From Escherichia coli (GTDB lineage Bacteria; Pseudomonadota; Gammaproteobacteria; Enterobacterales; Enterobacteriaceae), in NCBI RefSeq assembly GCF_003334255.1, contig NZ_QOWU01000022.1: DNA of 64,000 bases. One strand, written 5' to 3'. This document shows positions 34,365-41,231 of the stretch, piece after piece (positions within the stretch are counted from its first letter, which is position 1; each line of letters begins with the position of its first letter). Made by a program: the position numbers and the translations under genes. The notes under the pieces were generated by a model. The model was not told the DNA's origin. It worked only from the letters and a program-made list of their open reading frames with translations, and did no database searches.

Positions 34365-36005
34365 TCACACCGTAGCGAAACTAACTGGTTCACCCGCTCC
34401 GCGAGGTTCTGCCGACACAGAATGTTTGTGCAGACGGAATACATCCACCGCCTCAGTTAATCGTGCCGCCTGTTCTTCAAGGGACACCGCCGCCGCTGAG
34501 GCCTCTTCTACCAGAGAAGCATTCTGTTGCGTCACCTTATCCATTTCAGAAATCGCCTGGCTAACCTGCGTTATGCCTCTACTTTGTTCATCCGAGGCGG
34601 CGGCGATTTCCTGCATGATATGTGTGACACTCGCGACGGCATCAACAATAGTGCTCATGGTTTTCCCGGCCGTTGCCACCTCATCCGACCCCAGGTCAAT
34701 TAACCTGACTGATTCACTGATCAAGCCTTCAATCTCTTTCGCCGCCTGAGCGCTGCGACTTGCGAGTGTCCGTACTTCGCTGGCGACAACGGCAAATCCA
34801 CGCCCTTGCTCACCCGCTCGCGCGGCTTCAACGGCAGCATTCAGTGCCAGAATATTCGTCTGGAAAGCAATACTGTTGATGACGGCGGTGATCTCAGAAA
34901 TTTTCTTCGAACTCGTGGAGATAGCGCCCATCGTTTTTACTACACCGGAAACCGTCTGCCCGCCATCGCTGGCTTTAATAGAAGCCTCTTGCGCCAGTTT
35001 GCTGGCATGATGCGCGTTATCCGCATTCTGTTTCACCGTCGCAGTGAGTTGCTCCATGCTGGCGGCAGTTTGTTCGATAGCCGCCGCTTGTTCTTCGGTG
35101 CGAGATGACAGGTCCGCATTGCCAGCTGAAATTTCGCTGGTGCCACGATAAATCTCTTCCGCGCCCTGTCGAACAGTCCCTACTGTCATCCCCAGTGAAT
35201 GCTGCATTTGCTGTAAATGACGACTTAAGCGACCGATTTCATTACGACCCGCCGGTTCATCATTCATCGTCAGATCGCCACTGGCGATTTTTTCAATCCG
35301 TTGTGCGGCATGTTGCAGTGGACGAATGACGATCCGACGTAGCACCATAAATGTTATCAGCGTCATGACCAGGGCAAGCACAAACGCGCCAATCATGAAC
35401 ATCCCACCCAGGCGGGTGCGCTGATGGGCCAGTTCCGCCAGTTGGTTGGCTCTGGTGCTACGTATCTTAACGGCTTTGTTCAAAATATCGGTATAAGCAT
35501 TATCCAGCGGTCGGATCTGCTCACTTTCATGATTGATAATCGCTTCAAACATGCCATTTTTGGCATATTTCAACATAGGTTGCATACCCGTGATATAAGC
35601 CTGGAAGCGTTGATTTAATTCAGTGTCGAGGGCTTCATCAGCAGGTGTTTTCACCGGCCGATTCTGATAAGCACGATAACCTTGCTGCGACTGTTTAATC
35701 TCCGATTCGGCTTGCGCAATATTTCGCTTCATTGCTTCCATTTCCGCAATACGACTCGCAGCCCCGGCCTGAATCATATTGATCCGGGCTGAACGCAAAA
35801 AATCTGAACTGTTCGCTAACCCGGTCCGAATCTCAATCTCCGCAGTAACATCACGCTGATCGCGATCGGCCTGCCAGAGGAAATAGCCAGCCAGGGCTGA
35901 ACTTAATGCGAATAGAACTAAGATACCGCCTAGAATGCAGGCAAATAACGGAACCAATCTGATGTGATGCAAAAAACCTAATCGCTGTGAGGGAGTTGTA
36001 TTCAT
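34365..36005 (-). CDS. trg: Methyl-accepting chemotaxis protein III, Trg (546 aa)
   Basis: ORF track; two TM segments, HAMP domain and conserved MCP signalling domain. Confidence 0.9.
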
Positions 36006-36284
36006 TACCGTTGTCTCTCGTCCAGGTTTACTCCTGATAGAAAGTCATCGGCATTTGACGGTAATTACTTACGACTAAAAGCCTCTTTGCGTCACATTTT
36101 TACAACAATTATTGCAGAGAAGATTAATGCTATTGGAATGAAGAGAGTAACGAATGGCTAAACCGAATGACGAAAAATTCTGGAAAACAGCACGCAATTT
36201 CGTGAAGTGATTATTTCGTCCCTAAGGAAACCTCATAGGATGCCTGCGGGTGCCTGAGACTTTCTGTTTTCAGGCTAACCGGGA

Positions 36285-36335
36285 ATCAGAAAGACGAAGG
36301 CCCAGACCGATATTTCTATCAACCGAGGCCAACGA

Positions 36336-36345
<10 letters not shown>
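36285..36345 (-). ncRNA. sokB: Probable SokB antisense RNA region (approximate coordinates)
   Basis: Position antisense to the mokB translation-initiation region, inferred from hok/sok architecture; boundaries not determined from sequence. Confidence 0.3.
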
Positions 36346-36543
<198 letters not shown>

Positions 36544-36614
36544 GGGCAAGCGCGGGGATTTTCCCCGTGCATCTGACTAGCGGATTCATTTTCTCATGGC
36601 ACCCCTTTTACACT

Positions 36615-36788
36615 TCAGTTAGTGCATGTTTTTTTCGATGCACTAATAGAACCATCATTACAGACAAATTTGCCGCCTGCCGTACAGTGTGAGATCCCCC
36701 CTTTCGAACCAGAACAGGGTTTGCGCCCGGCATCGGCATAAAAGGAAACAAGCGTTCCCATAAACAAAATAAGTGCCAGTTTTTTCAT
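36615..36788 (-). CDS. ydcA: Small secreted protein YdcA (57 aa)
   Basis: Not in ORF track. Reverse strand ATG after GGAGGT SD; MKKLALILFMGTLVSFYADAGRKPCSGSKGGISHCTAGGKFVCNDGSISASKKTCTN. Confidence 0.65.
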   Translation of the reverse strand: MKKLALILFMGTLVSFYADAGRKPCSGSKGGISHCTAGGKFVCNDGSISASKKTCTN

Positions 36789-36958
36789 ATAACCTCCATG
36801 GTTTATCGAATCTTATGTTCGATTTGAACGTTATACGCTGGTTTATTTTGATACCGTTGATGAGATCAAAGATCGGGTGAATTGATTAAAAATAAGGCAG
36901 ATGGACGTATGGGCAAGGATTATGGTTTTATTTGTCATACAAATAAATATAATAGGCG

Positions 36959-37022
36959 CTTCCGATGTAGACCCGTATTCTTCGCCTGTACCACGGGTCG
37001 GTTTTAGTACAGGCGTTTTCTT
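36959..37022 (+). ncRNA. rydC: Hfq-dependent small RNA RydC
   Basis: tataat -10 element immediately upstream; transcript cttccgatgtagacccgtattcttcgcctgtaccacgggtcggttttagtacaggcgttttc ends in a hairpin plus U-tract; lies between ydcA and cybB. Confidence 0.6.
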
Positions 37023-37032
37023 TAAATATCCT

Positions 37033-37563
37033 TCAAGAACGTTTACGCGGCATCATGCGTAGAAGTGTGTTGTCCTTCCAGAAATAGTGGTGTGCCAGTG
37101 CAGCCGCAGCGTGCAACCCGATGACAAAATATCCCAGATTCGCCAGCGTCTCATGCCACGACTTTAAGCTATCTACCCGTTCGAAATTGGCCTCTGAAGC
37201 GAAAGGCATCGTCAAACCAAACGCAAACCACGGGTTGCCCCGGTTATACATCATCACCAAACCAATCACTGGCAGCGCAATAAACAGGAGATAAATCACC
37301 AAATGTCCCAAATGCGCCAGTCCCGTCATCATCGGTTTTGGCTTAGGTATAATCGGCGGGGTCGGGTATTTCAGCCTTAACAAAAGACGAACCACCATCA
37401 GCACGAGAATTGAGATGCCGCAGGAAACATGAATCATGTTGATGAGCGGCCGATCGCTACGTGGGAAGAAACCCCGAAACTCCATTGCGCAATACGCTGC
37501 GATAACCAGTAAAAAGACCAGCCAGTGAATGCTGATTTGTAACCTTGAATATTTATTTTCCAT
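37033..37563 (-). CDS. cybB: Cytochrome b561 CybB (176 aa)
   Basis: ORF 37033..37599 trimmed to ATG at 37563 (MENKYSRLQISIHWLVFLL...). Confidence 0.85.
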   Translation of the reverse strand: MENKYSRLQISIHWLVFLLVIAAYCAMEFRGFFPRSDRPLINMIHVSCGISILVLMVVRLLLRLKYPTPPIIPKPKPMMTGLAHLGHLVIYLLFIALPVIGLVMMYNRGNPWFAFGLTMPFASEANFERVDSLKSWHETLANLGYFVIGLHAAAALAHHYFWKDNTLLRMMPRKRS

Positions 37564-37751
37564 AACATTTCCTGCTTTAACATAATTTTCCGTTAACATA
37601 ACGGGCTTTTCTCAAAATTTCATTAAATATTGTTCACCCGTTTTCAGTACGTTACGTTTCACTGTGAGAATGGAGATTGCCCATCCCGCCATCCTGGTCT
37701 AAGCCTGGAAAGGATCAATTTTCATCCGAACGTTCCTGACAGGAGAAAACC

Positions 37752-38753
37752 ATGAGTAAAGTTGGTATTAACGGTTTTGGTCGTATCGGTCGACTGGTGT
37801 TGCGTCGATTACTTGAAGTCAAAAGCAACATAGACGTTGTCGCTATTAATGATCTCACTTCCCCAAAAATTCTCGCCTACCTGCTGAAACATGATTCAAA
37901 CTACGGACCATTCCCCTGGAGCGTTGATTTTACGGAAGATTCACTTATCGTTGATGGGAAAAGTATCGCGGTTTACGCCGAAAAAGAGGCTAAAAATATT
38001 CCGTGGAAAGCGAAAGGTGCAGAAATCATTGTCGAATGTACTGGCTTTTATACCTCCGCCGAGAAATCGCAGGCGCATCTTGATGCTGGTGCGAAGAAGG
38101 TGTTGATTTCCGCCCCTGCCGGTGAAATGAAAACTATCGTTTATAACGTCAATGACGACACTCTGGATGGCAACGACACCATTGTTTCCGTGGCGTCATG
38201 CACCACTAACTGTCTTGCGCCGATGGCCAAAGCCTTGCATGACAGTTTCGGGATAGAAGTCGGCACGATGACGACCATTCATGCCTATACTGGCACCCAG
38301 TCACTGGTGGATGGCCCGCGTGGTAAAGATTTACGTGCTTCACGCGCCGCGGCAGAAAATATCATTCCCCACACTACGGGGGCGGCAAAAGCCATTGGTC
38401 TGGTGATACCGGAACTGAGCGGCAAACTGAAAGGTCATGCGCAACGCGTACCGGTGAAAACAGGTTCGGTCACTGAGCTGGTGTCCATTCTCGGAAAAAA
38501 AGTGACTACCGAAGAGGTGAATAACGCACTTAAACAAGCAACCACCAATAACGAGTCATTTGGTTATACCGATGAAGAAATAGTCTCTTCCGATATCATT
38601 GGCAGCCATTTCGGTTCGGTGTTTGATGCCACGCAAACGGAAATTACCGCCGTGGGCGATTTACAACTGGTGAAAACGGTCGCCTGGTACGATAACGAAT
38701 ATGGCTTCGTCACGCAGCTTATTCGCACCCTCGAAAAATTCGCTAAACTCTGA
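37752..38753 (+). CDS. gapC: Glyceraldehyde-3-phosphate dehydrogenase GapC, uninterrupted 333-aa frame
   Basis: ORF track; AGGAG SD; NAD-binding GFGRIGR and catalytic SCTTNC motifs. Confidence 0.9.
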
Positions 38754-38762
38754 CGCGCACAG

Positions 38763-38790
38763 GCGGAGGAAAAAACCTCCGCCTCTTTCA
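38763..38790. terminator. Hairpin terminator between convergent gapC and aldA
   Basis: ggcggaggaaaaaacctccgcc followed by tctttc. Confidence 0.5.
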
Positions 38791-38794
38791 CTCA

Positions 38795-40234
38795 TTAAGA
38801 CTGTAAATAAACCACCTGGGTCTGCAGATATTCATGCAGGCCATGTTTACCATCTGCGCCGCCAATACCGGATTTACGCCATCCGGCGTGGAAGCCTTGC
38901 ATAGCTTCGAAGTTTTCACGGTTGATGTAAGTTTCACCAAACTTCAGCCCTTTAATGGCTTTCATCGCGACGTTCAGATTTTGGGTATAGATTGATGAGG
39001 TCAGGCCGTAATCACTGTCATTAGCCATTGAGATAGCATCTTCCAGCGTGTCAAATGCGACAACTGGCAGCACCGGGCCAAAGGTTTCCTCATGCATAAT
39101 CGACATTTCCTGGCGAACATCCAGCAGCAATGTCGGCGGATAATAATATCCTTTCCCCTCTACCGCTTTGCCACCCAACGCCACTCTCGCCCCTTCTTCT
39201 ACTGCGCGCGCCACTTTTTGCTCGACCCTTTCCAGCGCCGCGGCGTTAATCAACGGCCCCATCGCAATGTCGTTGCGTTCAGCGGGGTTACCAAATTGAA
39301 CCGCCTGCATCGCTTCACCCAGCCGATTGACGAACTGATCATAAATGCCTTTCTGTACATAAACACGTTCTGCACAGTTACACACTTGCCCACTATTAAT
39401 GACGCGTGAATCAACGATGGCTTTGACTGCCAGTTCAAGATCGGCATCGTCCATTACGATAGCTGGTGCTTTACCACCCAATTCCAGACACACTTTAGTG
39501 ATGTTTTTCGCCGCAGTCGCCATGATCTTCTCACCTGCAGAGACGCTGCCTGTCATACTGACCATTGCGACCTTTGGGTTACCCGCCAGTTCTTGCCCAA
39601 CGGTTTCACCACGCCCCAGAACAAGGTTAAACACGCCGCGCGGAAGGCCTATTTCATCGACGATTTTGGCGAATGCAATCGCATTGTTTGGCGTAAATTC
39701 ACTGGGTTTAATGACGATGGTATTACCGGTCAAAAGAGCGGGAGCCATTTTGCGGGCAATGAGGAAGAACGGGAAGTTCCACGGCAGAATGCCGGTAGTC
39801 ACGCCAAGTGCACGTTTAAACAGAAGAATATTTTCTCCTGGACGATCGCTTTGAATAATCTCGCCCTCGTAACGCCGTGCCCACTCCGCCATGTAATCGA
39901 TATAGTCCGCAGTAAAAGCCACTTCGACTTCAGCCAGCTGCTGGATCTTGCCCCCTTCTTCAACAATCAGCGCACTGATTTCACTGGCGCGTTCGCGGAT
40001 CCCGGCGGAGATTTTGCGCAACCAACTGGCGCGTTCAATGGCAGGCAACGCTTCCCATTCTGGTTGTGCACGTTCTGCTGCATCGATTGCCTTACGGGCA
40101 TCCTCGGCCTGACCATCGGGAATGCTGGAAATGACAGCCTCTGTAGCAGGGTTTACCACATCAATCCATGCGTCTCCACGCCAGGTAACAAACTGTCCAT
40201 CAATATACATAGGATGTTGAACGGGTACTGACAT
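38795..40234 (-). CDS. aldA: Lactaldehyde dehydrogenase AldA (479 aa)
   Basis: ORF track; aldehyde dehydrogenase family. Confidence 0.9.
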   Translation of the reverse strand: MSVPVQHPMYIDGQFVTWRGDAWIDVVNPATEAVISSIPDGQAEDARKAIDAAERAQPEWEALPAIERASWLRKISAGIRERASEISALIVEEGGKIQQLAEVEVAFTADYIDYMAEWARRYEGEIIQSDRPGENILLFKRALGVTTGILPWNFPFFLIARKMAPALLTGNTIVIKPSEFTPNNAIAFAKIVDEIGLPRGVFNLVLGRGETVGQELAGNPKVAMVSMTGSVSAGEKIMATAAKNITKVCLELGGKAPAIVMDDADLELAVKAIVDSRVINSGQVCNCAERVYVQKGIYDQFVNRLGEAMQAVQFGNPAERNDIAMGPLINAAALERVEQKVARAVEEGARVALGGKAVEGKGYYYPPTLLLDVRQEMSIMHEETFGPVLPVVAFDTLEDAISMANDSDYGLTSSIYTQNLNVAMKAIKGLKFGETYINRENFEAMQGFHAGWRKSGIGGADGKHGLHEYLQTQVVYLQS

Positions 40235-40430
40235 GGGCGACTCCTGTGATTTATATGTTTGTTTTCGGTGAATGCATTGTTAATTAACATCAATCATCAG
40301 AGAGACGGCATCGTGAAAGGACAATTCTGTGAAGGGCTTCATAAAAACAAGTGTAAAAGGAATAAGAGGCAGAAATAAAAGGCAGGAGTTATGCCCGTTT
40401 GCAAACAAGTGGTTCACAAACGGGCAATTT

Positions 40431-41231
40431 TTAACGTAACGAGCGACTTTCCATCGCCTCGATGAGCACCGCATCGTGTTTCAGCGTTTGCCATGCATGG
40501 GTGACTTCTGCCGGAAAATCAACGTGAACGATAAAATCTCGCCCGCGGGGACCGTAGCCATCGCTATCATCGCGTAAACGCGGCAGCTCGCCAGTGAGTA
40601 GTGATAGATAACGCTCAACCGGCCATAATCCTTGTAACTGATTAATAAAGATTACACTGTCTACGTTATTTCCTAACTGAGGAACGAATCCGGGATAACT
40701 TAACCAGCGTGGTGCATCGGGATTGTCCCCGGTCATACGGCGGAACGTCGCCATCGTGCGCCGCTGCATGGTGGGGTCCTGAACAACGATAGCCGTATGA
40801 ACTCGTTCTACGGCCTGATTCAATAGCGCGATGCTAAAGCGTGCGTTTTCACCGCAGTTTGTTGACTGGTCTTCAATCCAGATTTTTTCATGCGGAATAT
40901 GCCAGAACTGATGAGCGATATCCGCCAGGATGGTCGCTTCTGCTCTGCCAGTGGTGCGGATAGTGTTGTAGTGCGGATGCTGTGCGATGGCGCTATACAA
41001 AAAAGTTGTCGAGTGACCGATACCACCACTAATCAGTAAAGGAATTTGCTGATCGCGGGCAATCTTACATGCCGCATCGATAGTCGGCATAACCGCATTG
41101 CCTGCAAGGATCACGCAATCGGCCTGATACGGCACCTCACCGGAGAAATCATCCTGCGCCAGCCACTGTCCAATAACATTTATGGCATCTATGGTTGCCG
41201 TCGAAAGCGTCGGAAACGGGGTATTGTTCAT
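40431..41231 (-). CDS. ydcF: DUF218-family protein YdcF (266 aa)
   Basis: ORF track; synteny. Confidence 0.85.

Follow-up and report, generated by a model that had tools for sequence, protein, structure and literature searches.

The window, a 64,000-nucleotide stretch of Escherichia coli DNA, carries gapC on the plus strand (37752-38753) between two minus-strand genes, cybB (37033-37563) and aldA (38795-40234). The order of cybB, gapC and aldA is the same in K-12 MG1655, and gapC is convergent with aldA. Further upstream of cybB lie RydC (36959-37022), ydcA, hokB/sok and trg. An Rfam scan of positions 35800-40500 gave no match in the gapC leader and returned only two RNAs, both expected for this region: the sok antitoxin RNA of the hokB/sokB locus (36248-36399, 101 bits) and, just upstream of cybB, the small RNA RydC (92.5 bits). 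The start of cybB can be read in two ways. Its mechanical ORF reaches an ATG at 37599 (188 aa; 37033-37599), while the annotated start at 37563 gives a protein of 176 aa, the length likewise found in K-12. The longer form would leave only 152 nt between cybB and gapC.

A six-frame ORF listing returns one ORF of 333 codons for gapC, which starts with ATG, has no internal stops and ends in TGA at 38751-38753. The preliminary description had read this stretch as an uninterrupted gapC frame behind a strong AGGAG Shine-Dalgarno sequence, and both readings are borne out (Table 1). It had also credited gapC with a terminator of its own, which is right only in part. A stable hairpin does begin 8 nt 3′ of the gapC stop, and the 56-nt stretch that contains it has a folding energy of -18.5 kcal/mol (z = -2.9 relative to shuffled sequences), but gapC and aldA converge on it, so it is a terminator-like hairpin that the two share. 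Read in the gapC direction, the hairpin is followed on its 3′ side by a poor U-tract (UCUUUCAC), and a consensus terminator scan makes no call at this hairpin. A canonical intrinsic terminator for gapC is therefore unconfirmed, the stem being stable but the U-tract weak.

Table 1. Coordinates of gapC, its flanking signals and its diagnostic sites in the window.
Feature	Position	Strand	Remarks
Divergent cybB-gapC intergenic region	37564..37751		Presumed gapC promoter region; from annotation
Shine-Dalgarno AGGAG	37741..37745	+	6 nt 5′ of the gapC ATG; read from the sequence
gapC CDS	37752..38753	+	333 codons + TGA, uninterrupted; type I NAD-dependent GAPDH
Codon 39 AAA (Lys)	37866..37868	+	TAA in K-12, the K-12 nonsense site; pairwise alignment
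Catalytic Cys150 codon TGC	38199..38201	+	Inside the ASCTTNCL signature
Catalytic His177 codon CAT	38280..38282	+	
A7 homopolymer run	38495..38501	+	Gene positions 744-750; A6 in K-12, giving the frameshift
Codon 253 ACC (Thr)	38508..38510	+	Rare variant; Ala (GCC) in every other allele sampled (11), in the crystallised protein and in the K-12 reading
GC-rich hairpin	38761..38784		9-bp stem, 6-nt A6 loop; between convergent gapC and aldA; RNA fold

The whole window is collinear with positions 2744573-2808572 of E. coli G1/2, which was isolated from the faeces of a healthy person. Over the 1,301 nt around gapC (37600-38900), the two are 100% identical. PGAP names the identical ORF of G1/2 'gap', a type I glyceraldehyde-3-phosphate dehydrogenase (WP_000048670.1). 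Over the first 58.2 kb, the window and G1/2 are separated by 8 mismatches and one 5-bp indel, the latter within the first ~2.5 kb, and they also differ by ~240 bp in the copy number of a 30-bp tandem repeat. This repeat (57961-58240) runs to 9.3 copies with 91% matches within a disrupted autotransporter/BigA-like pseudogene region, and the array is ~8 units (~240 bp) shorter than in G1/2, so its copy number varies between near-identical strains. At its other end (1-2260), the window begins within a pseudogene for an Rhs core protein, which is frameshifted in G1/2, and continues into a type VI secretion VgrG gene. Beside ynbD, according to the G1/2 annotation, a methyltransferase-family gene that has no N-terminus (47568-49046) abuts a CDP-alcohol phosphatidyltransferase gene that has no C-terminus (49032-49232). 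This truncated pair suggests an internal deletion in the operon adjoining ynbD; the two genes would be ynbC and ynbA, with ynbB lost.

The GapC protein belongs to the type I GAPDH family by profile. On NCBIfam TIGR01534 (type I GAPDH) it reaches 446.9 bits, above the curated cut-off of 367.2 and over profile positions 1-330 of 330. The NAD-binding Rossmann domain Gp_dh_N (Pfam PF00044) is matched at residues 3-102 (2.3e-35), and the C-terminal catalytic domain Gp_dh_C (PF02800) at residues 155-313 over its entire model length (2.1e-57). NAD-binding and catalytic-cysteine motifs had been named beforehand, and they can now be placed: the GxGxxG motif reads GFGRIG at residues 8-13, and the signature [ASV]-S-C-[NT]-T-x(2)-[LIM] reads ASCTTNCL at 148-155, with Cys150 as the nucleophile. 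To these can be added the catalytic His177, present in TTIHAYT. Furthermore, all residues on the contact lists of PMC8615399 are kept, namely the NAD contacts Arg11, Ile12, Asp34 and Ser120, the Ps-site residues Thr180, Thr182 and Arg232, and the new-Pi residues Ser149, Thr151, His177, Thr209 and Gly210. More specialised models of the family are not passed: the ArsJ-associated GAPDH model gives 306 bits, below its cut-off of 450, and the two Epd/GapB models give 279.5 against 539 (NF010058) and 275.3 against 530.55 (TIGR01532).

Glycolysis in E. coli relies mainly on a different GAPDH, GapA (b1779). GapA and GapC have fold and chemistry in common, as well as the ASCTTNCL signature and the catalytic histidine, but protein identity between the two is only 46%. 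On the GapA-type model NF011954, GapC reaches 300.7 bits, far below the cut-off of 662. GapC is a paralogue from a different GAPDH lineage and not a copy of GapA.

A search of solved structures places GapC next to a crystallised E. coli enzyme, referred to as EcGAPDH1. GapC and PDB 7C5F are identical at 332 of 333 residues over the full length (729 bits), and 7C5H, 7C5P and 7C7K, together with the mutants C150A, C150S and H177A, match over the same 333 residues. Cys150, His177, the NAD site, and the Ps and new Pi sites of the 7C5F series are the same as in GapC. The sole difference is at residue 253, a surface residue that is Thr in the window and Ala in the crystallised protein; this position is not conserved and is Tyr in GapA. 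Other type I GAPDH structures (6IQM, 8HMN, 7WWW and 5J9G, then 4QX6 and 3K73) also align to GapC over the full length, but with 409-480 bits they are plainly less close to it than the E. coli entries are. The name gapC does not occur in PMC8615399, and EcGAPDH1 is equated with gapC here because of the sequence comparison made in the present analysis.

Purified EcGAPDH1 is an active NAD-dependent GAPDH in vitro, with a KM of 0.73 mM for G3P (PMC8615399). The C150A mutation abolishes its activity, H177A lowers it ~8,000-fold, and crystals hold NAD, G3P and the thioacyl intermediate (PMC8615399). The assays were run at 50 °C and pH 10 (PMC8615399), conditions that tell little about physiological flux. 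In GapC, by analogy, Cys150 would attack C1 of glyceraldehyde-3-phosphate with His177 acting as the base. Hydride would then pass to NAD+, and phosphate would cleave the thioacyl intermediate to give 1,3-bisphosphoglycerate. Given the activity of EcGAPDH1 and the identity at 332 of 333 positions, the protein of the window is, bar one surface residue, an already demonstrated active GAPDH. The earlier suggestion that this gene may encode a second functional GAPDH is thus supported, with TIGR01534 passed and all functional residues kept.

The counterpart of this gene in MG1655, gapC (b4493; formerly gapC_1, b1417, and gapC_2, b1416), is annotated as a pseudogene. It occupies the orthologous locus and is 99% identical to the window at the DNA level. 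Base-by-base alignment over 1,002 nt gives 10 substitutions and one 1-bp deletion in K-12. Two of these changes break the K-12 frame: A115T turns Lys39 from AAA to TAA (K39*), and one A is gone from the A7 run at window positions 38495-38501, so that the frame is shifted from about codon 248. R18G results from C52G and T253A from A757G (from the window to K-12), and the other 6 changes are at third codon positions. Put differently, the K-12 pseudogene has K39*, the A7-to-A6 change at codons 248-250, R18G and 8 more substitutions, mostly synonymous, all of them absent from the window allele. The statement in the preliminary description that K-12 gapC is a frameshifted pseudogene is thus correct, and the alignments it proposed, with K-12 gapC and with gapA, reveal no loss of a catalytic residue and a K-12 copy that is neither intact nor identical. 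The K-12 fragment gapC_1 (b1417) is still present in a K-12 transcriptome table (PMC4512719), and the Keio strain JW1413, labelled ΔgapC, was used in PMC3080795.

How the intact and broken alleles are distributed was read from 5,426 complete E. coli genomes, of which 5,418 contain the 1.3-kb gapC region at 90-100% identity. Alleles were counted with diagnostic queries of 56-57 nt, for which only an exact match scores at least 99%. The window's AAA 57-mer at codon 39 is matched exactly in 3,223 of the 5,426 genomes and the TAA 57-mer of K-12 in 1,152, while the 56-mer with the A6 frameshift of K-12 is matched in 1,046. The K-12 lesions are therefore carried by ~1,050-1,150 of the 5,426 complete genomes (~19-21%), for the most part natural isolates. 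The Thr253 version of the window is much rarer, its 57-mer being matched exactly in only 38 of the 5,426 genomes.

Carriers of the K-12 lesions are found well outside the laboratory. In a spread sample of 15 TAA carriers, 13 are natural isolates (human, pig, cattle, pigeon, wastewater) and only 2, J53 and C600, are evident K-12 derivatives. Isolation sources named for the K-12-type allele comprise humans, pigs, cattle, a pigeon, a tapir and wastewater. The gapC of the pig isolate EC416 agrees with K-12 at each of the 11 differences and bears the PGAP flag 'frameshifted; internal stop'. On these grounds, with 13 of 15 sampled carriers natural and the EC416 allele identical to that of K-12 at the 11 sites, the view that the K-12 allele arose through laboratory domestication is rejected. 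The lesions are in circulation among natural isolates from humans, livestock and wildlife and are not a laboratory artefact. In other lineages, an intact 333-codon gapC is present in 9 of 9 sampled full-length hits, which include O111:H8, O157:H7, O25:H16, blood, urine and CSF isolates, and a soil isolate.

A homopolymer run such as A7 could be taken for a recurrent slippage hot spot or a contingency switch, and this too is rejected. The A6 versions of three other common gapC haplotypes have 2, 0 and 1 exact matches among the 5,426 genomes, against 1,046 for the K-12 haplotype, and the 2 + 1 cases could be sequencing errors. A6 is almost confined to the K-12 haplotype, and the frameshift is in essence a single event passed on by descent. 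What K-12 carries is a derived allele that has become fixed in one natural lineage, neither the ancestral nor the typical state of the gene.

Insertion sequences and a neighbouring lesion were also encountered at this locus. E. coli B (B-LamR, NZ_CP115179.1; extracted locus L003, positions 263-960) has an IS1A in the cybB-gapC region ~105 bp 5′ of the gapC ATG, at a site corresponding to window positions ~37634-37647, and its gapC CDS is intact; the insertion could alter gapC or cybB expression in B strains. In SCPM-O-B-7615 from raw milk (NZ_CP144926.1; L007, 2653-4830), an IS1A-associated deletion has removed the 3′ parts of gapC and aldA and left 198 nt of gapC, an independent route to loss of the gene. 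In the STEC strain 8234 of O111:H8 (L008, 1396-1701 and beyond), gapC is intact and the adjoining aldA is annotated as frameshifted.

Among 12 intact gapC alleles, including that of the window, mean dS is 0.099 and mean dN 0.0045, with a dN/dS of 0.045, and segregating sites fall 8/3/66 on the first, second and third codon positions. As judged from these alleles, the pattern is one of strong purifying selection, and a dN/dS of ~0.045 among intact alleles argues for use of gapC in vivo.

Intact gapC has been described before. PMC2949598 and PMC1796617, both citing Espinosa-Urgel & Kolter 1998, report that the gene is intact in environmental or natural isolates and preferentially expressed in fresh water, and PMC2949598 that gapC promoter activity is environment-specific (citing Espinosa-Urgel & Kolter, Mol Microbiol 1998, 28:325). 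PMC1796617, citing the 1998 study, presents gapC as laterally acquired, with an adaptive role in aquatic survival. A regulated gapC transcript was detected in EPEC (PMC6333774). The gene also serves as a qPCR marker for E. coli, as stated in PMC10614358, which cites Hidalgo et al. 1996 and UniProt P58072, the GapC of O157:H7. An intact gapC is the common and typical state in E. coli and is already known; it is not a novel find.

From these data, the gene of the window is very probably the intact wild-type E. coli gapC, encoding a second, 'bacterial-type' type I GAPDH at the cybB-gapC-aldA locus. A different possibility is that gapC is intact but physiologically silent, kept by drift or hitch-hiking, with GapA doing all of the work. 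The promoter scan upstream of gapC returns a single weak sigma-70-like match (37557-37586), no better than in shuffled sequence, so that the scan offers no convincing sigma-70 promoter, as a silent gene would have it. About one in five complete E. coli genomes is also without a functional gene, which implies that gapC is dispensable in at least some niches, and E. coli B lives with an IS1 inserted ~105 bp before the gapC ATG. However, a dN/dS of 0.045 and an 8/3/66 distribution of sites across divergent lineages are unexpected for a silent gene, and frameshifts in the A7 run are nearly absent beyond the K-12-type lineage (2, 0 and 1 genomes). Silence is further at odds with the regulated EPEC transcript (PMC6333774) and with the environment-specific promoter activity stated in PMC2949598. 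Taken together, these points make a silent gapC very unlikely.

GapC might instead be a GAPDH-family enzyme with another main substrate or cofactor, such as an Epd/GapB-like E4P dehydrogenase, an NADP-dependent enzyme or an ArsJ-associated GAPDH. The GAPDH fold hosts such specialisations, and GapC does match the Epd models at 275-280 bits and the ArsJ-associated model at 306 bits, below threshold in each case. Yet neither the Epd cut-offs (530-539) nor that of the ArsJ model (450) is approached, whereas TIGR01534 is passed, and no arsJ occurs among the gapC neighbours. GapC also has Asp34, the acidic residue that favours NAD over NADP. Moreover, the enzyme identical at 332 of 333 residues oxidises G3P with NAD+, and its complexes with NAD, G3P and the thioacyl intermediate were crystallised (PMC8615399). 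A different main activity for GapC is thus highly improbable.

Within the reading of the gene as wild-type gapC, we infer that the copy in this strain would be expressed and would add GAPDH activity conditionally beside GapA in vivo. The contribution of GapC may be small or conditional, GapA being the main GAPDH. A more far-reaching proposal casts GapC as a cold or aquatic niche isozyme under strong constraint, and the K-12 allele as a single natural loss that marks a lineage without an external-environment phase. As a whole, this proposal is speculative and rather unlikely to hold, and its parts differ in standing. That the K-12 allele occurs naturally, extends across its lineage and arose once is largely established by what has been observed; that the K-12-type loss reflects the giving up of an external-environment phase of the life cycle is something that might be the case.

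Beyond correct annotation, the importance of the intact frame is slight, and it lies in the reminder that K-12 is atypical at the gapC locus. What is modestly new is the status of the K-12 allele as a natural lineage polymorphism, found in roughly a fifth of complete genomes, whereas the literature implies laboratory domestication. Ultimately, metabolic models, knockout collections and expression studies based on K-12 miss the second functional GAPDH of most natural E. coli.
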